This document shows positions 5,487 to 27,898 of a stretch of 36,421 bases of DNA, one piece after another. The notes under the pieces are model-generated. The model was not told the DNA's origin. It was given only the letters and a program-made list of their open reading frames with translations, and searched no databases. The position numbers and the translations under genes are program-made. This stretch comes from a virus (Duplodnaviria; Heunggongvirae; Uroviricota; Caudoviricetes). The stretch's first letter is position 1, and every line of letters starts with the position of its first letter. Location of the stretch: IMG/VR virus record IMGVR_UViG_2718218361_000002, one strand, 5' to 3'.

Positions 5487-7752
5487 AGCCTCCGGGCGTT
5501 TTGTCCCTCCGTCAGCATTTGCCGCAGGCACCGGTAAGGCGTTTACCGGTGCTTATGCATGGAACGCGCCACGCGAGGCTGTCGGGCGCGAAAGACCCCT
5601 TACACGTGACGAGATGCGTCAGGTGCAAGGGGTTTTATCCACGATTAACCGTCTGCCTTACTTTTTGCGCTCGCTGTTTACTTCACGCTATGACTACATC
5701 CGGCGCAATAAAAGCCCGGTGCACGGGTTTTATTTCCTCACATCCACTTTTCAGCGTCGTTTATGGCCGCGCATTGAGCGTGTGAATCAGCGCCATGAAA
5801 TGAACACCGACGCGTCGTTGCTGTTTCTGGCAGAGCGCGACCAGTATGCGCGCCTGCCGGGGATGAATGACAAGGAGCTGAAAAAGTTTGCTGCCCGTAT
5901 CTCATCGCAGCTTTTCATGATGTATGAGGAACTCTGCGATGCCTGGGTGGATGCACATGGCGAAAAAGAATCGCTGTTTACGGATGAGGCGCAGGCTCAC
6001 CTCTATGGTCATGTTGCTGGCGCTGCACGTGCTTTCAATATTTCCCCGCTTTACTGGAAAAAATACCGTAAAGGGCAGATGACCACGAGGCAGGCATATT
6101 CTGCCATTGCCCGCCTGTTTAACGATGAGTGGTGGACTCATCAGCTTAAAGGCCAGCGTATGCGCTGGCATGAGGCGTTACTGATTGCTGTCGGGGAGGT
6201 CAATAAAGACCGTTCTCCTTATGCCAGTAAACATGCCATTCGTGATGTGCGTGCGCGCCGCCAGGCAAATCTGGAATTTCTTAAATCGTGTGACCTTGAA
6301 AACAGGGAAACCGGCGAGCGCATCGACCTTATCAGTAAGGTGATGGGCAGTATTTCTAATCCTGAAATTCGCCGGATGGAGCTGATGAACACCATTGCCG
6401 GTATTGAGCGTTACGCCGCCGCAGAGGGTGATGTGGGGATGTTTATCACGCTGACCGCGCCGTCAAAGTATCACCCGACACGTCAGGTCAGAAAAGGCGA
6501 AAGTAAAACCGTTCAGCTTAATCACGGCTGGAACGATGAGGCATTTAATCCAAAGGATGCGCAGCGTTATCTCTGCCGCATCTGGAGCCTGATGCGCACG
6601 GCATTCAAGGATAATGATTTACAGGTCTACGGTTTGCGTGTCGTCGAGCCACACCACGACGGAACGCCGCACTGGCATATGATGCTTTTTTGTAATCCAC
6701 GCCAGCGTAACCAGATTATTGAAATCATGCGTCGTTATGCGCTCAAAGAGGATGGCGACGAAAGAGGAGCCGCGCGAAACCGTTTTCAGGCAAAACACCT
6801 TAACCGGGGCGGTGCTGCGGGATATATCGCGAAATACATCTCAAAAAATATCGACGGCTATGCACTGGATGGTCAGCTCGATAACGATACCGGCAGACCG
6901 CTGAAAGACACTGCTGCGGCTGTTACCGCATGGGCGTCAACGTGGCGTATCCCGCAATTTAAAACGGTTGGCCTGCCGACAATGGGGGCTTACCGTGAAC
7001 TACGCAAACTGCCTCGCGGCGTCAGCATTGCTGATGAGTTTGACGAACGCGTCGAGGCTGTACGCGCCGCCGCAGACAGTGGTGATTTTGCGTTGTATAT
7101 CAGCGCGCAGGGTGGGGCAAATGTCCCGCGCGATTGTCAGACTGTCAGGGTTGCCCGTAGCCCGTCGGATGACGTTAACGAGTACGAGGAAGAAGTCGAG
7201 AGAGTGGTCGGCATTTACGCACCGCATCTCGGCGCGCGTCATATTCATATCACCAGAACCACGGACTGGCGCATTGTGCCGAAAGTGCCGGTCGTTGAGC
7301 CTTTGACTTTAAAAAGCGGCATCGCCGCGCCTCGGAGTCCTGTCAATAACTGTGGAAAGCTCACCGGTGGTGATACTTCGTTACCGGCTCCCACACCTTC
7401 TGAGCGCGCCGCAGCCGTGCTTAATCTGGTTGATGACGGTGTTATCGAATGGAATGACCCGGAGGTCGTGAGGGCGCTCAGGGGCGCATTAAAACACGGC
7501 CTGAGAACACCAAACCGTCAGCAAAGAAACGGAAGCCCGTTAAAACCGAATGAAATAGCGCCATCGGCCAGGCTGACCCGGTCGGAGCGTATGCAAATTA
7601 CCCGTATCCGTGTTGACCTTGCTCAGAACGGCATCTGGCCTCAGCGATGGGAACTTGAGGCGCTGGCGCGTGGAGCAACCGTAAATTATGACGGAAAAAA
7701 ATTCACGTATCTGGTCGCTGATGTGTGGCCGGGGTTCTCGTTACCCATTTGA
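5476..7752 (+). CDS. A: replication initiation protein A (rolling-circle nickase)
   Basis: ORF track 5434..7752; start placed at ATG 5476 (MAVKASGRFVPP...); ~758 aa; contains HWHMMLF (HUH-type motif) and tyrosine-rich GYIAKYISKNIDGY. Confidence 0.9.
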   Translation: MAVKASGRFVPPSAFAAGTGKAFTGAYAWNAPREAVGRERPLTRDEMRQVQGVLSTINRLPYFLRSLFTSRYDYIRRNKSPVHGFYFLTSTFQRRLWPRIERVNQRHEMNTDASLLFLAERDQYARLPGMNDKELKKFAARISSQLFMMYEELCDAWVDAHGEKESLFTDEAQAHLYGHVAGAARAFNISPLYWKKYRKGQMTTRQAYSAIARLFNDEWWTHQLKGQRMRWHEALLIAVGEVNKDRSPYASKHAIRDVRARRQANLEFLKSCDLENRETGERIDLISKVMGSISNPEIRRMELMNTIAGIERYAAAEGDVGMFITLTAPSKYHPTRQVRKGESKTVQLNHGWNDEAFNPKDAQRYLCRIWSLMRTAFKDNDLQVYGLRVVEPHHDGTPHWHMMLFCNPRQRNQIIEIMRRYALKEDGDERGAARNRFQAKHLNRGGAAGYIAKYISKNIDGYALDGQLDNDTGRPLKDTAAAVTAWASTWRIPQFKTVGLPTMGAYRELRKLPRGVSIADEFDERVEAVRAAADSGDFALYISAQGGANVPRDCQTVRVARSPSDDVNEYEEEVERVVGIYAPHLGARHIHITRTTDWRIVPKVPVVEPLTLKSGIAAPRSPVNNCGKLTGGDTSLPAPTPSERAAAVLNLVDDGVIEWNDPEVVRALRGALKHGLRTPNRQQRNGSPLKPNEIAPSARLTRSERMQITRIRVDLAQNGIWPQRWELEALARGATVNYDGKKFTYLVADVWPGFSLPI

Positions 7753-8012
7753 GTAAAAACACAACGTGATTTGATATGGCATTGAATGGCTTATGCGGAG
7801 CAGTTATGGGGCAGCAGAAGGTCAATAGCATGCTGAATTAGAAGGCTAAATGCTATTGAGTGACTAGCATGTCGGTAAGGACAGCCGTTTGATCCGGGTC
7901 ATAAAAGGCCATCCATTTAGTCTAATAAAATCATTGCGGGTAACCTTATGTCGACGCATAATTCGTCTTGAGCGAAGTCTTGTCAGTCTTTCATCGTATT
8001 GATGATGGGCGC

Positions 8013-8042
8013 AAAAAAACCACCCTGGCAGGTGGTTTTTTT
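8013..8042. terminator. bidirectional rho-independent terminator
   Basis: AAAAAAA-CCACC-ctggca-GGTGG-TTTTTTT; A-run upstream and T-run downstream. Confidence 0.7.
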
Positions 8043-8054
8043 GTTTGAAGCATA

Positions 8055-8168
8055 TTAAAGCATAATGCTGACATTGATATTACTGACGTTTACTGACAAA
8101 CCACTCGGACTACCGTTTGGATAGCCAAAGAGGGCCAGAACGAGAATGCAGTAATAGCATTTCTTCAT
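8055..8168 (-). CDS. small hydrophobic peptide (37 aa), candidate membrane peptide
   Basis: MKKCYYCILVLALFGYPNGSPSGLSVNVSNINVSIML; AGGAGG SD 5 nt before the ATG (plus-strand CAT 8166..8168); ends just before terminator 8013..8042; longer 88-aa reading exists but lacks an RBS. Confidence 0.3.
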   Translation of the reverse strand: MKKCYYCILVLALFGYPNGSPSGLSVNVSNINVSIML

Positions 8169-8646: not shown

Positions 8647-8665
8647 GGCGAGGCGGGGAAAGCAC
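8647..8665. other. cos site (19-nt cohesive-end sequence)
   Basis: GGCGAGGCGGGGAAAGCAC, which I recall as the P2 cohesive-end sequence, in a GC-rich island inside AT-rich DNA. Confidence 0.7.
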
Positions 8666-8916
8666 CGCGCTCATGCAATGTGAAAATGTAATACCGATAG
8701 ACTTACCGTTTCAGAGTTAGGATGTTCATCATATTGAAGTAACATACGAGAGATTCAGCAGAGCGCAACAAGTTTGAGAAAACAGTCCATATATCTTAAC
8801 CTATTAGGACTGACGGAAAATGAAGCACTATTCTTCGTGGTTATTTAGTATAGTATTGACTTTTCAACACGATCAATGGTTTGATCAGTTCGTATGTAAT
8901 TGATTAAGGAAACTCA

Positions 8917-10350
8917 ATGAAAAAGCAAAGCGAAATTAACGTAAAAAAATTAGCATCATGGAGATTTTCATTTAAAAACATTGGGTGTATCTCTACAGGA
9001 GAAATTAATGCAAAACCTTTAACGCTTTTATGCGGAAAAAATAATACTGGTAAAACATGGGTTATGTATGGGTTATATGGCTTCCTAAATATGCCATCAC
9101 CATCTTTAAAATTGCCTCAAGTTGCAAATTTTGCCAAAACTCTTCGTGAAAATGGTAAGTTTGAATTAGATGTAATTGAGTGGATAAAAGATAATTTTAC
9201 GTTAATCAAAAGAGAATTTAATAAAGATTCATCTTTAATGCTTAAAGATGTATTCAACACTAATGATAAGGAAATTTTTTCTAATTCAACATTTGACTGG
9301 GTTATAGATGAAGAATCATTAGTATCAAGTGTTTATGAAAAAAAATTGGATGTTAGCCTCGTCATAGGAACCGGCAAAAAAGAAGTAATGCTATTATCCA
9401 AAGATAAAAATAGCAATATCATACAAATGACGCTGCTAGATTCTGCTTTCCCCAGAATTGATGGGTTTATAAACTTAACTCTAAGTCAGTTATTAAAGAT
9501 AGAGTATGATGAAAGCCCAGCATTTTTAATTCCCGCAGAAAGAAATGGCTTGCACCTTTTTTTCAATGAATTAAGTTCCAGAAGAACTGCGTTATTGCAC
9601 CACGCCTCAAAAGAACAGTTCGATCTGAACTCACTATTAATGGATGTAATGAAGTCTAAGTATTCTGCTCCTATAGCAAATTACATAGACTGGCTTAATG
9701 AAATTAAGGTTAATAGGAAAAATAAAAATGGCCAATTTCATAAATTAGCAGAAGAAGTAAAAAAAATAATTTCAGGAAAATATTCAGTTGATCCTGAAGG
9801 GCAGATTTATTTTTCAACGTATAAGAAAGGTAAGACACCTGCAAGTAAAATTGAACTTCATTTATCGTCATCCACTGTTAAAAGTTTGTTTGGCCTGTGG
9901 TTTTATTTAGAGCACCAAGCAAAAACTGGTGATATTTTAATGATTGACGAACCCGAGTTAAATTTACACCCGTCAAATCAGCGAGTAATTGCAAGATTTT
10001 TAGCAAAGCTAGTTAACTCTGGTATTCGGGTTATTGTTAGTACTCACAGTGATTATTTTGTAAAAGAAATCAATAGCTTGATTATGTTGCATGGCGTTTC
10101 TGAAAATATGATTGAAAAACGAAACGCTATCATGCAGAAGCAAGGGATTAGCATCGACTCAATTTTAGACTCTAACCTAGTCGCTGCGTATCTATTTGAT
10201 AATGGCTCAGTCAATGAAATGCAGAAGTCAAATGAAGGGATTAATGCTGTAACTTTTGATGAAGTAATTAATGCCATTAATGACGATAATGATGAAATAT
10301 ATTACTCCTTGGTGGAGAATGCCTCTGATAGTGAGGATGTAGATGAGTAA
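8917..10350 (+). CDS. ABC-type (AAA_15/AAA_21-like) ATPase, OLD/AbiLi/AriA/PtuA-like, family unassigned
   Basis: 477 aa; Walker A CGKNNTGKT, signature-like LSSSTVKSLFGL, Walker B DILMIDEPE, H-loop STHSDYF; ~280-aa insertion between Walker A and B; acidic C-terminal tail; SD TAAGGA; AT-rich. Confidence 0.85.
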   Translation: MKKQSEINVKKLASWRFSFKNIGCISTGEINAKPLTLLCGKNNTGKTWVMYGLYGFLNMPSPSLKLPQVANFAKTLRENGKFELDVIEWIKDNFTLIKREFNKDSSLMLKDVFNTNDKEIFSNSTFDWVIDEESLVSSVYEKKLDVSLVIGTGKKEVMLLSKDKNSNIIQMTLLDSAFPRIDGFINLTLSQLLKIEYDESPAFLIPAERNGLHLFFNELSSRRTALLHHASKEQFDLNSLLMDVMKSKYSAPIANYIDWLNEIKVNRKNKNGQFHKLAEEVKKIISGKYSVDPEGQIYFSTYKKGKTPASKIELHLSSSTVKSLFGLWFYLEHQAKTGDILMIDEPELNLHPSNQRVIARFLAKLVNSGIRVIVSTHSDYFVKEINSLIMLHGVSENMIEKRNAIMQKQGISIDSILDSNLVAAYLFDNGSVNEMQKSNEGINAVTFDEVINAINDDNDEIYYSLVENASDSEDVDE

Positions 10351-10915
10351 TATTATCAATGTAATACAAAGTTGCATCGATCCTACATTTCAATTAATGC
10401 GAGAGCAGGAATGCTGGGTTGTATGCGAAGAGAACCCAGGTGCTACAAATAAAAAATTACTGGTAAACGGAAATGGTATCTATGGATTTTCGCTAGATTC
10501 TAATAGTATTTCTAAACCAGTCTGGAAATTTTTAAAATCTTCTGCTTTACCAGGAGTATGCTCTGTTTGTGATGGAATTTTTGTTACGTCGCACAAAGAC
10601 GTAGATTATTTTATCGTAATAGATCTCAAATCTTATAACTCAAATGGTGCGGCTAAACAGGTAGTTACTGGCATTCATTTTTGTAAGTGGCTATATTCTG
10701 TATTGAATTTACATGGGCATTTGTCAAGAAAAGTGGATTACATTGGTGTAATAAGTAAATTATCGAGGAGGCAGCAATCAGCTAAAAAAACAACTGTTCG
10801 CTCGCAATTGCCTCCTCCTGAAATTTGCTATAATTATCCTGTGTTTACATTGGAAAACTATAACAGATTATCACTGGCGCATATTTGTGACTTTATATAC
10901 AATATGAAAAAATAA
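10343..10915 (+). CDS. small partner protein (190 aa), possible TOPRIM-like or PD-(D/E)xK-like nuclease, family unassigned
   Basis: ATG overlaps the ATPase stop by 8 nt, with GAGGA SD; motifs VVCEEN, CSVCDG, HKDVDYFIVIDLK; AT-rich. Confidence 0.8.
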   Translation: MSNIINVIQSCIDPTFQLMREQECWVVCEENPGATNKKLLVNGNGIYGFSLDSNSISKPVWKFLKSSALPGVCSVCDGIFVTSHKDVDYFIVIDLKSYNSNGAAKQVVTGIHFCKWLYSVLNLHGHLSRKVDYIGVISKLSRRQQSAKKTTVRSQLPPPEICYNYPVFTLENYNRLSLAHICDFIYNMKK

Positions 10916-10924
10916 AATCCTGCA

Positions 10925-10958
10925 ATTATTAGCCCCGGCAAATGCTAGGGCTAATTAT
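10925..10958. terminator. imperfect hairpin between convergent genes (weak terminator candidate)
   Basis: ATTAGCCC...GGGCTAAT 8-bp stem with 12-nt loop between the partner-gene stop and the Q stop; no clean T-run. Confidence 0.3.
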
Positions 10959-20250: not shown

Positions 20251-21324
20251 TTACTTTCCATTTTTTAATGAATTGATTAACGATGCTATTTGCTCAATGC
20301 CATCAAATGTAGATGGTATCTTATCATCGGATAGCATGATGTTTGAAAATACTACGTCTTCGAATTTTGAAAGCGCTTCCGGATTGTTTTTCCTTATCTC
20401 TGAGGAATAGTCGCTATAACTCTGAATGAACTGACAAAGGCTCTTTCTGAGTTCTATTTGCATAATCTGAGTTCGTAACGATATATGATTTATCAGTACA
20501 ACTCTAAAGTAATACATGAAAATCAATGTAACTGATGCAAAAGGTAGTGCTGACATAAAATATGTGGCAGCATTTGTCGTTTCGAGAGTTGGTAATTTAT
20601 GCATTCCATAGTATATCAGCGGGGAGGGAATGATTATAGCCAAGATGATAAGAATTATTCTTGATAGCATGATTTCACTTTCTTTCTTTTTGCCAAGTGA
20701 ATTAAAGCCATCAAACAATCCAACAAAATTAAATGCGACCTCATACCCTTTTAATGACTCTTTAATTGACTCTATTTTGGCATGTTGCTCCTTTAAGAAG
20801 GAGTCGCACTTTTCGAAAAATTGACGCCCTTCGTTTAAACTATCAATGTATTTTTTATATGTGTCAACATTGCTGGAGCTTAAAACTTCTTTAACCATTG
20901 CTAATGGCAGTTCTCTAAGAGAAAAGTCTATCTGTGCTCTGCTCCGCTCATCGAATTCATTATAGTTATACAGAGCAAAATCCTTGATGGTTCTTAGTGG
21001 TGAAAAGTGAGACTCTATTTCCGGAGAGAGAATGCTTGGTTCAATGATAAATCTAAAAAAGCAAGTGAATATAAGGTTGATGCTGTTGTTATCTTCCCCC
21101 TTTTCTCTTAAGAAACTTTTAAAGGTGTCGCCAATCATAGCAATGTTGTACTGGGATTTTTTGTCCCAATCTTCAGGGTTTTCGGAAATGAAGTTTATTG
21201 CTTGAGCAATTATTTTGTTTCTGTTTGATTCAAAGTTTGTGCTGGGAGTCAGCGTGTTCAAAAAGACCAGATAATCTTTGAACAATTCTTTCATTGTTTC
21301 TGACGAGAAAAAGTAAGTACTCAT
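20251..21324 (-). CDS. hypothetical two-pass membrane protein (accessory gene at the S-V locus, P2 orf30 position)
   Basis: ORF track 20251..21420; start placed at internal ATG (plus-strand CAT 21322..21324) to avoid overlapping V; ~357 aa; hydrophobic helices IMLSRIILIILAIIIPSPLIYYG and YFMSALPFASVTLIFMYYFRVVLI; AT-rich, opposite to the late genes. Confidence 0.75.
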   Translation of the reverse strand: MSTYFFSSETMKELFKDYLVFLNTLTPSTNFESNRNKIIAQAINFISENPEDWDKKSQYNIAMIGDTFKSFLREKGEDNNSINLIFTCFFRFIIEPSILSPEIESHFSPLRTIKDFALYNYNEFDERSRAQIDFSLRELPLAMVKEVLSSSNVDTYKKYIDSLNEGRQFFEKCDSFLKEQHAKIESIKESLKGYEVAFNFVGLFDGFNSLGKKKESEIMLSRIILIILAIIIPSPLIYYGMHKLPTLETTNAATYFMSALPFASVTLIFMYYFRVVLINHISLRTQIMQIELRKSLCQFIQSYSDYSSEIRKNNPEALSKFEDVVFSNIMLSDDKIPSTFDGIEQIASLINSLKNGK

Positions 21325-21410
21325 AATGGATTTTGTTGTCCCTTGTTGTTCTGTGCACCAGAAATCGTGGTGTGATTTACTTCGAGATTGTACAGAATCA
21401 TTATTATCGA

Positions 21411-22040
21411 ATGAATGCACAATACAATGAAATTCTTCGCTTTATACGCAATATGATTCGCACTGGCATTATCGTCGAAACCGACCTTAATGCCGGTCGC
21501 TGCCGTGTGCAGACCGGCGGCATGTGCACCGACTGGCTTCAGTGGCTGACCCATCGCGCTGGGCGTTCGCGCACATGGTGGGCACCTTCCGTGGGGGAAC
21601 AGGTGCTGATTCTGGCCGTGGGCGGTGAACTCGACACGGCGTTCGTTCTGCCGGGGATTTATTCCGGCGATAACCCTGCGCCGTCTGCGTCGGCGGATGC
21701 CCTGCATATCCGTTTCCCTGACGGGGCGGTGATTGAGTATGAACCTGAAACCAGTGCACTCACGGTAAGCGGAATTAAAACGGCCAGCGTGACGGCTTCT
21801 GATTCTGTTACTGCCACGGTACCAGTGGTCACGGTGAAAGCATCAACCCGCGTCACCCTGGACACACCAGAAGTGGTCTGCACTAACAAACTGACTACCG
21901 GCACGCTGGAAGTGCAGAAGGGCGGGACGATGCGCGGCAACATTGAACACACCGGCGGTGAACTCTCATCAAACGGTAAGGTACTGCATACCCACAAACA
22001 CCCCGGCGACAGCGGCGGCACAACCGGGAGTCCTTTATGA
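21411..22040 (+). CDS. V: baseplate spike/assembly protein V
   Basis: ORF track 21333..22040; start at ATG 21411 (MNAQYNEILRFIRNMIRTG...); 209 aa. Confidence 0.9.
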   Translation: MNAQYNEILRFIRNMIRTGIIVETDLNAGRCRVQTGGMCTDWLQWLTHRAGRSRTWWAPSVGEQVLILAVGGELDTAFVLPGIYSGDNPAPSASADALHIRFPDGAVIEYEPETSALTVSGIKTASVTASDSVTATVPVVTVKASTRVTLDTPEVVCTNKLTTGTLEVQKGGTMRGNIEHTGGELSSNGKVLHTHKHPGDSGGTTGSPL

Positions 22041-26671: not shown

Positions 26672-27898
26672 ATGTTACAGTTCAGCTTTGTATCAAATGA
26701 CGTTGTTATGACTTACGACGGTGACAGCGGAGAACAAATAATTTGGGTTTGGGAGAGTTTAAATAAATTTCAAACAGTATGCATTTCACGCATTTTTAAC
26801 TTTCAACTCCAGGACTTGAGAAACCCACCGTCAACCGTTCAGGATTTTAATGATTATGAATATTCCTTTAATTTTGGCACGCTTAATAATGAATACATAA
26901 CAGTTCCGGGACGGATTCTAAGCATTAATCGAGATGTCCTTATACATAAGTCCATCAAGCTTGAAAGGAAAGTATTTGCGTCAGAACGCAACGTCTCCAT
27001 TTTTGGTCGGCTTTCAAAACTACTCGATCACACTAATCCCATCATCATCGGAGGAGATAAGCCGGAAGCTATACCAAAAAGCGTATTCCAGGAGTTGCAA
27101 AGTAAATTCCCCAACACAGGGGAACTGGATCGCTATGCTAATGCAAGGGTTCACGCTATTCTCGCAGGTTATCTTGATGGTATGAAAGATGCTCGCGAAC
27201 GGTATGAACATTACCTAAACAGAAAAACAGTGATCAGAAAAACCGACAAACTGGATTTAGAAGTTTTAAATAAGCTCGAAATTGAGAAATATACACTCAT
27301 AAGAGACATTATCCAGGATGCGTTGAATAACAAAACTAACTTGTCTGAAGATGACTGGCAGAGCCTGATGATACCCTTCATCACATTACTTTTTCCAAAA
27401 TATATCAAGGTCCTCGAGAAGGTTAAAATTTTCGACTATTACTCTAATCCTTCGGCTAAAACAAATCGGTTTATAGACATTGCACTGGTGGATGCAAACG
27501 GCAACCTTGATATCATCGAAGTCAAAAAGCCGTTTGATGATAAGATCCTTCGCAAGACGCCCTATCGCGACAACTATATTCCTACATCAGAACTTAGCGG
27601 CGGTATTATGCAGGCTGAAAAGTATATTTTTCATTTATCTAAATGGGGTGTTAAGGGTGAAAAAGAGCTTACGAATGCCTACAAGAATTCTCTGCCAGCG
27701 GGAATGTGTATTCGTATATCTAACCCAAAAGCCATCATCATTGTCGGGCGCGATCAGATAGCGAACGGTAACATGACCGACGGTCAGTTGCTTGATTTTG
27801 AGATAATCAAACGTAAGTACGCCAACATGATAGACATATTGACGTACGACGACCTGTTGCGTCGACTTAATAATACGATTGAAGCATTGAAAGGTTGA
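26672..27898 (+). CDS. PD-(D/E)xK nuclease-like protein, Shedu/DUF4263-like candidate (accessory gene at the G-FI locus, P2 Z/fun position)
   Basis: 408 aa; SD GAGGAA; C-terminal half has RFIDIALVDANGNLDIIEVKKP (D...D...ExK) followed by AIIIVGRD; AT-rich. Confidence 0.8.
   Translation: MLQFSFVSNDVVMTYDGDSGEQIIWVWESLNKFQTVCISRIFNFQLQDLRNPPSTVQDFNDYEYSFNFGTLNNEYITVPGRILSINRDVLIHKSIKLERKVFASERNVSIFGRLSKLLDHTNPIIIGGDKPEAIPKSVFQELQSKFPNTGELDRYANARVHAILAGYLDGMKDARERYEHYLNRKTVIRKTDKLDLEVLNKLEIEKYTLIRDIIQDALNNKTNLSEDDWQSLMIPFITLLFPKYIKVLEKVKIFDYYSNPSAKTNRFIDIALVDANGNLDIIEVKKPFDDKILRKTPYRDNYIPTSELSGGIMQAEKYIFHLSKWGVKGEKELTNAYKNSLPAGMCIRISNPKAIIIVGRDQIANGNMTDGQLLDFEIIKRKYANMIDILTYDDLLRRLNNTIEALKG

Follow-up and report, generated by a model that had tools for sequence, protein, structure and literature searches.

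A PD-T4-4-family gene pair as probable anti-phage cargo near the cos site of a P2-like prophage

Two adjacent genes in the window (i.e. the whole stretch of 36,421 nucleotides that was analysed), encoding an ATPase of 477 amino acids and a small partner of 190 amino acids (here called B), most probably constitute a two-gene anti-phage system of the PD-T4-4 family that forms AT-rich accessory cargo of a P2-like prophage, in its cos-proximal hotspot. That the ATPase and B genes act as an anti-phage system is very probable. The pair is already known, belonging to the named PD-T4-4 family, and as a find it is ordinary.

The module comprises two open reading frames on the + strand, taken from the ORF list of the window. 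The PD-T4-4_A-type OLD-family ABC ATPase is encoded at 8917..10350, and the PD-T4-4_B-type partner, a small predicted PD-(D/E)xK nuclease, at 10343..10915; the first assignment is based on the reading frame and profile matches, the second on reading frame, profile and fold. The ATG of B (at 10343) lies just before the TAA of the ATPase gene (10348-10350), so that the genes overlap by 8 nt. For B, a Shine-Dalgarno sequence GAGGA at 10333..10337 (+ strand) precedes the ATG by 5 nt and falls in the 3′-terminal part of the ATPase gene, while that of the ATPase gene itself, AAGGA at 8906..8910 (+ strand), can be read 6 nt 5′ of its ATG. Both frames, their overlap and the separate Shine-Dalgarno sequence of B had been described in an earlier sequence-only reading of this DNA, and all are found where it had placed them. 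The overlap and the GAGGA inside the ATPase gene are consistent with translational coupling of the ATPase and B. The 8-nt overlap is kept in the E. coli variant of 88% identity and in the Klebsiella and Enterobacter homologues.

The left edge of the cargo slot is a P2-type cos site at 8647..8665 (+ strand). A 19-nt cohesive-end sequence, GGCGAGGCGGGGAAAGCAC, which we take to be that of P2, was used as the query; it matches exactly at this position, with 0/100 shuffles matching. Because the cos match is exact, the ATPase/nuclease pair can be placed between cos and Q, where the sequence-only reading had it. The GC fraction is 0.325 in the ATPase gene and 0.339 in B, against 0.539 in the replication gene A and 0.527 in the portal gene Q, which bears out the AT-richness relative to the flanking genes that had been claimed. 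No + strand sigma-70 promoter was called by a consensus scan from cos to the ATPase ATG. A 7-bp inverted repeat (TTAGCCC ... GGGCTAA; 10929..10954, unstranded), read from the sequence, lies between the convergent stops of B (10915) and Q (10974). It is possibly a bidirectional terminator, a weak candidate, and was not called in a terminator scan. The neighbouring genes belong to a P2-like prophage, which is integrated next to yegR. We note that the same prophage carries Shedu (equivalent to PD-T4-8) in its Z/fun hotspot.

The ATPase matches the PADLOC profile PD-T4-4_A (PDLC04033) with E=2.1e-112 and a score of 375 bits, its residues 16-465 aligning with positions 2-458 of the 460 in the profile. 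B matches PD-T4-4_B (PDLC04037) with E=1.2e-15 and 55.8 bits, aligning residues 2-155 with positions 3-160 of 190; this match is moderate, covering 83% of the profile. Partner proteins of ATPase homologues from other genera score like B on PDLC04037, at 42-69 bits. The rival PADLOC profiles give far lower scores on the ATPase, with 102 bits for AriA, 55 for Old, 41 for PtuA and 37 for GajA. The gene order is that of PD-T4-4, the two genes being adjacent and co-oriented with the ATPase first, and linked by the 8-nt overlap and the internal Shine-Dalgarno sequence; the same order with tight linkage is found at nine other loci. The pair thus agrees with PD-T4-4 in everything that was compared, i.e. 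both profiles, the fold and the operon order.

PD-T4-4 is one of 21 systems obtained by functional selection by Vassallo et al. 2022 (PMC9519451). The clone came from E. coli ECOR58 (RCO57999.1 and RCO57988.1, 1973 nt); the system was recorded as 'ATPase, nuclease', and its protection against T4 was validated experimentally (PMC9519451). The window module has a length of 1999 nt against the 1973 nt of the ECOR58 system, and in both the ATPase gene comes first and the small PD-(D/E)xK-like gene second. The published HHpred table for the ECOR58 system places the nuclease-like segment of PD-T4-4B at 77-106, as it is in B, and for PD-T4-4A it has a P-loop around residue 25 and AAA_15 ending at 371. 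In the subfamily to which the window pair belongs the D...DxK...Q motif spans 76/77-105/106, and Walker A and the H-loop are 335-337 residues apart; the corresponding spans in the sister subfamily are about 91-122 and 348-368. Since the published residue positions agree, the ECOR58 reference most likely belongs to the subfamily of the window, as judged from positions in the published table. The settings of the two are different: the reference lies in an ICE-like element, while a P2-like prophage carries the window copy, in its cos/Q slot. There is modest value in recording a PD-T4-4-family operon on the cos/Q side of the P2 defence hotspot when the validated reference comes from an ICE-like element. 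The A-cos-Q interval of P2 is a known defence hotspot (PMC9519451), and the view that a defence-type ATPase and its partner occupy a P2 cargo hotspot here is supported.

In later work PD-T4-4 is classed as a PD-(D/E)xK effector with a P-loop NTPase for a partner. One 2026 preprint calls the effector HNH, contrary to the other sources and to the fold of B found here.

The motifs of the ATPase are Walker A GKNNTGKT (residues 40-47), a signature-like LSSSTVKS (316-323), Walker B ILMIDEPE (340-347) and the H-loop STHSDYF (375-381), and an acidic tail ENASDSEDVDE occupies 467-477. All had been recognized from the sequence. The gap between Walker A and Walker B is about 292 residues; an insertion of about 280 had been estimated. 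In a comparison of 16 homologues, down to 26% identity, G40, N42, K46, T47, E208, R209, S318, K322, D344 and H377 are invariant, as are a PELNLHP segment and T376-H377-S378, and E345 is nearly so; the acidic tail is not conserved among them. E208-R209 stand in place of the Q-loop, and arginine at this position is typical of the OLD clade and matches R182 of WonA. A C-terminal domain at about 385-465 is conserved in the 16 homologues (G441, F447, D448, I451 and Y462). The predicted catalytic residues, as read from these alignments, are all intact. The profile HMM searches that had been suggested as a check gave AAA_15 (6e-26) and AAA_21 (8e-17) for the ATPase, both above the Pfam cut-offs. The PDB entry that matches best by sequence is 6p74, an OLD-family protein (E=1e-6). 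A scan of NCBIfam found only sub-threshold matches to Walker B. In PHROGs the ATPase and B each form a full-length family of unknown function. An old GenBank annotation as an ABC transporter was rejected, transporter families matching only the generic Walker B region, far below cut-offs.

The fold of B is PD-(D/E)xK and not TOPRIM. A structural model calculated with an 8-sequence alignment was unusable (pLDDT 57). A profile search gave 35 homologues of B, and a second model on a 34-sequence alignment reached pLDDT 89.3 and pTM 0.87; such a prediction had also been proposed in the sequence-only reading, and it yields a PD-(D/E)xK core. The model has a beta-beta-alpha-beta core in which D77 starts the strand 78-84 and D94-L-K96 ends the strand 87-96. 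Q106 lies in the helix 103-123, which is followed by the strand 130-139. As modelled, these elements make up the restriction-endonuclease core. D77, D94 and K96 are predicted to be catalytic, and D52, Q106 and E29 are conserved as well. All 34 homologues keep D77, K96 and Q106; Methylococcus has E in place of D94. The D...(D/E)xK active site of B is thus intact, and the fold is that of a PD-T4-4 partner. From acidic motifs in B the sequence-only reading had suggested either a minimal TOPRIM or a PD-(D/E)xK fold, and the second alternative was correct. VIDLK is the real (D/E)xK motif and E29 of VVCEEN is nearly invariant, but conservation of KDVD is limited to the close clade. A further conserved residue, D77 in SVCDG, had been missed.

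Readings of the pair as TOPRIM, HNH, PARIS, Septu, Old or Gabija were rejected on the evidence of profiles and fold. PARIS resembles it as a two-gene ABC ATPase and nuclease system from P2/P4 hotspots, and the AriA profile matches the ATPase with E=1.8e-29. However, AriA scores about a quarter as high as PD-T4-4_A, and the partner in PARIS, AriB, has about 300 amino acids and is of the DUF4435/TOPRIM type, whereas B has no DUF4435 match and a PD-(D/E)xK fold. No AriB match for B was found in PADLOC. The ATPase shares its clade with Old and GajA, and the prophage neighbourhood is shared with Old, the profile of which matches with E=2e-15. In those proteins a TOPRIM nuclease is fused to the ATPase, whereas here a PD-(D/E)xK protein is separate, so that the description of the pair as split OLD-like with a TOPRIM partner is not supported. 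A Pfam search of the ATPase found no TOPRIM, and alignment to the Old and GajA profiles is confined to the ATPase core, at about 318-407. PtuA profiles of Septu match only the region of Walker B and the H-loop (E about 1e-10), and B has neither an HNH match in Pfam nor a PtuB match in PADLOC. The PADLOC candidate PDC-M47 is similar in that its PDC-M47A profile matches the ATPase with E=1.5e-81, and the PDC-M47B profiles weakly match B proteins of the sister subfamily. By contrast, the B of the window has no PDC-M47B match, and the ATPase scores higher on PD-T4-4_A.

The closest characterized relative is WonAB, and it provides the best mechanistic model available for the pair. WonAB is found in the WASA-1 prophage of Vibrio cholerae, and comprises WonA (AWB73975.1), an OLD-type ABC ATPase, and WonB (AWB73976.1), a small variant PD-(D/E)xK nuclease (PMC12137116). 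Its authors relate it to PD-T4-4 and to 'OLD-ABC ATPase + novel REase' operons (PMC12137116), and it is this statement that connects WonAB with the window pair. The operon type was described by Krishnan et al. 2020 and, as it is cited in PMC12137116, is defined by comparative genomics only. The catalytic lysine is K71 in WonB, compared with K96 in the B of the window. Defence by WonAB requires both genes, and is lost on mutation of Walker A, R182 (at the Q-loop position), Walker B or the H-loop of WonA, or on K71A substitution in WonB (PMC12137116). [quoted passage not shown] The system acts by abortive infection after replication has started; the cells arrest without lysis, and capsid assembly fails (PMC12137116). 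Replication of phage DNA begins, and the DNA is not simply degraded (PMC12137116).

A mechanism for the window pair can be inferred from WonAB and other ABC-ATPase/nuclease systems. The ATPase would dimerize head-to-head around ATP, with its conserved C-terminal domains holding and stabilizing the nuclease B. A cue from infection, probably arising after phage DNA replication begins, would alter the ATPase cycle, and the altered cycle would release or activate B. B could then cut a nucleic acid, so that phage development stops through abortive infection or direct interference. Purified EcPD-T4-4 forms a higher-order complex, and this complex did not cleave any DNA substrate that was tried (bioRxiv 10.1101/2025.07.10.664194). 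In view of this, and of the lack of simple DNA degradation by WonAB, it is not certain that B acts on DNA; RNA or structured or modified DNA are possible substrates. It is rather unlikely that the enterobacterial P2-borne clade is functionally distinct within PD-T4-4, by virtue of another trigger, a non-DNA substrate or a role in P2/P4 competition. The non-DNA substrates named for that clade are, for example, RNA or tRNA, and the competition would be that of P2-like phages against P4 satellites, as its chief role.

The sister subfamily is recognized by the profiles PDLC04032 (A) and PDLC04035 (B). Alignment of the two B subfamilies by hhalign gave a probability of 96% and E=4.7e-9, with the same catalytic columns aligned. 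A pair of the sister subfamily lies between the repressor and integrase genes of a Vibrio P2-like phage, a site that is the Vibrionaceae hotspot of Rousset et al. The subfamily is also found on ColE1-type plasmids of 4-5 kb and on IncX1 plasmids of E. coli and Klebsiella, and in both hosts it is essentially the sole cargo of ColE1-type plasmids of 4.2-4.8 kb. This last finding would suit a mainly selfish module of the addiction or toxin-antitoxin type, in which the ATPase restrains a nuclease toxin and so secures retention of the element, with no part in defence; the Pfam text for AAA_21, 'putative AbiEii toxin, Type IV TA system', points the same way, as does the tight coupling of partners evident in the loss of WonB upon inactivation of WonA. 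Nevertheless we consider such a role distinctly unlikely. Defence systems are often carried by small plasmids, the reference PD-T4-4 and WonAB both protect against phage in a manner dependent on ATPase and nuclease residues, and addiction and defence roles are in any case compatible.

Returning to PD-T4-4 as the preferred assignment, the pair had been put forward as undescribed, a view to be given up if both proteins fell within a named system. Both match the PADLOC profiles PD-T4-4_A and PD-T4-4_B and are so placed, B by its moderate match of 56 bits. A split OLD- or PARIS-like module with a minimal TOPRIM or novel effector, standing apart from all named systems, is refuted in its strong form and otherwise very improbable. 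In its favour, B had no matches in Pfam at E<=1 (hence neither DUF4435 nor HNH) and none in NCBIfam, and the sole match of its profile in the PDB was ribosomal S21 (E=0.74), which is spurious, so that no solved structure is detectably related by sequence. In RefSeq it is a 'hypothetical protein', and its close clade contains only 9 clusters at 90% identity. Yet an exhaustive search places B in a family of 727 representative clusters (E<=0.001), all of them standalone proteins of about 180-210 amino acids, its fold is not TOPRIM, and the PD-T4-4_A score of the ATPase is 3-4 times its AriA or Old score. The 'novel system' flag should go, since a standard PADLOC-type profile scan labels the pair PD-T4-4.

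The module is present in 19 of 5426 complete E. coli genomes, 16 copies having at least 99% identity and three 88%; all 19 are chromosomal and adjoin the portal gene. A distant blastn search of the 5426 genomes, with the window module and a Vibrio homologue, found none beyond the same 19. The homologous locus of E. coli W, at about 2325136-2327134 of NC_017664.1, has an identical gene order and a module of 99.8% identity, and this copy offers a handy native host for studies of the trigger and substrate of PD-T4-4. In phage records there was no DNA match for the module and no tblastn match for B, and a search with the ATPase found only the pair of the Vibrio P2-like phage, 30% identical and of the sister subfamily.

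More than 2500 clusters at E<=1e-10 make the ATPase family a large one. ATPases of 45-51% identity occur in Aeromonas, Acinetobacter, Vibrio and Methylococcus, each followed by a partner of 183-201 amino acids that is 26-36% identical to B, and these pairs match the same two PADLOC profiles as the window pair. In a Herbaspirillum copy the partner reading frame is uncalled, but has the same motifs as B. Genes found beside the homologues encode a fusion of a methyltransferase with DUF559 and a DNA methylase accompanied by an HNH protein; other neighbours are an IS66 element and the tail-fibre end of a prophage. Such surroundings fit mobile defence cargo. That the pair serves the DNA metabolism of the prophage instead is scarcely credible; in that case the ATPase could, for example, be of the RecF/SbcC type and B a nuclease of the resolvase type, with a function in replication, recombination or packaging close to cos. 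Against this, the operon also occurs away from phages, with copies that lie on plasmids, between housekeeping genes or next to restriction-modification-like genes; P2 itself lacks it, its GC content is that of foreign cargo, and few E. coli genomes carry it although P2-like prophages are common.

Sequence divergence is throughout faster in B than in the ATPase. Between the E. coli variants, identity is 79% in B compared with 93% in the ATPase, and with respect to Aeromonas and Acinetobacter the values are 33-36% for B and 47-51% for the ATPase.

The prophage carries a second defence gene at the P2 Z/fun hotspot, where an AT-rich ORF of 408 aa (window 26672-27898, + strand) is flanked by the tail-fibre assembly gene G and the sheath gene FI. 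The product matches the PADLOC profile PDLC04067 with E=1e-219, and the Pfam SduA_C domain is matched at residues 224-396; judged by these profiles, the ORF is a full-length Shedu SduA. Its length (1227 nt) and the span of its DUF4263 agree with those of PD-T4-8 of Vassallo (2022). Shedu is a named defence system, so the prophage contains at least two such systems.

A third AT-rich island (GC 0.35-0.37) lies at the P2 orf30 position, between the tail gene S and the baseplate gene V. It contains an ORF of 389 aa on the − strand (window 20251-21420), and the C-terminal third of the product has a membrane-spanning appearance. Scans of Pfam and PADLOC profiles gave no match to this protein, and its sole match is PHROG 9373, a family of unknown function. 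If uncharacterised cargo is sought in this prophage, this ORF is a stronger candidate than the PD-T4-4 module, i.e. the ATPase and nuclease pair.

On the A side of cos, in the gap that separates replication gene A (ending at 7752) from cos (8647), there is a hydrophobic ORF of 37 aa (MKKCYYCILVLALFGYPNGSPSGLSVNVSNINVSIML; window ~8058-8168, − strand) preceded by a strong AGGAGG Shine-Dalgarno sequence. It is followed by a GC-rich hairpin (window ~8010-8043) with runs of A and T on its flanks, which looks from its sequence like a bidirectional terminator. The product could be a small membrane peptide or toxin; the PADLOC scan returned no match to it. The position of this ORF means that cargo flanks cos on either side. 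A variant of the module with 88% identity was found in three genomes, and there the extra genes on the A-to-cos side of the hotspot differ from those of the window: they encode two hypothetical proteins and one with DUF3850 (E. coli UTAK-5, locus L013, 1770-3059). Exchange of the hotspot's two halves appears to be independent.

The sister subfamily of PD-T4-4 (PDLC04032/PDLC04035) is essentially the sole accessory cargo of ColE1-type plasmids of 4.2-4.8 kb, exemplified by pSCU-105-5 of E. coli (L010) and pKPN6 of K. pneumoniae (L012). It is also widespread, with its clusters found on hundreds of contigs, and together these observations raise the question of whether plasmid stabilization is also its role.

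In the introduction of a preprint (bioRxiv 10.64898/2026.07.10.737580), the effector of PD-T4-4 is entered under the HNH nucleases. The original HHpred table and three other papers assign it to PD-(D/E)xK, which is likewise the fold predicted here for the window nuclease, and the HNH label is probably a textual slip.
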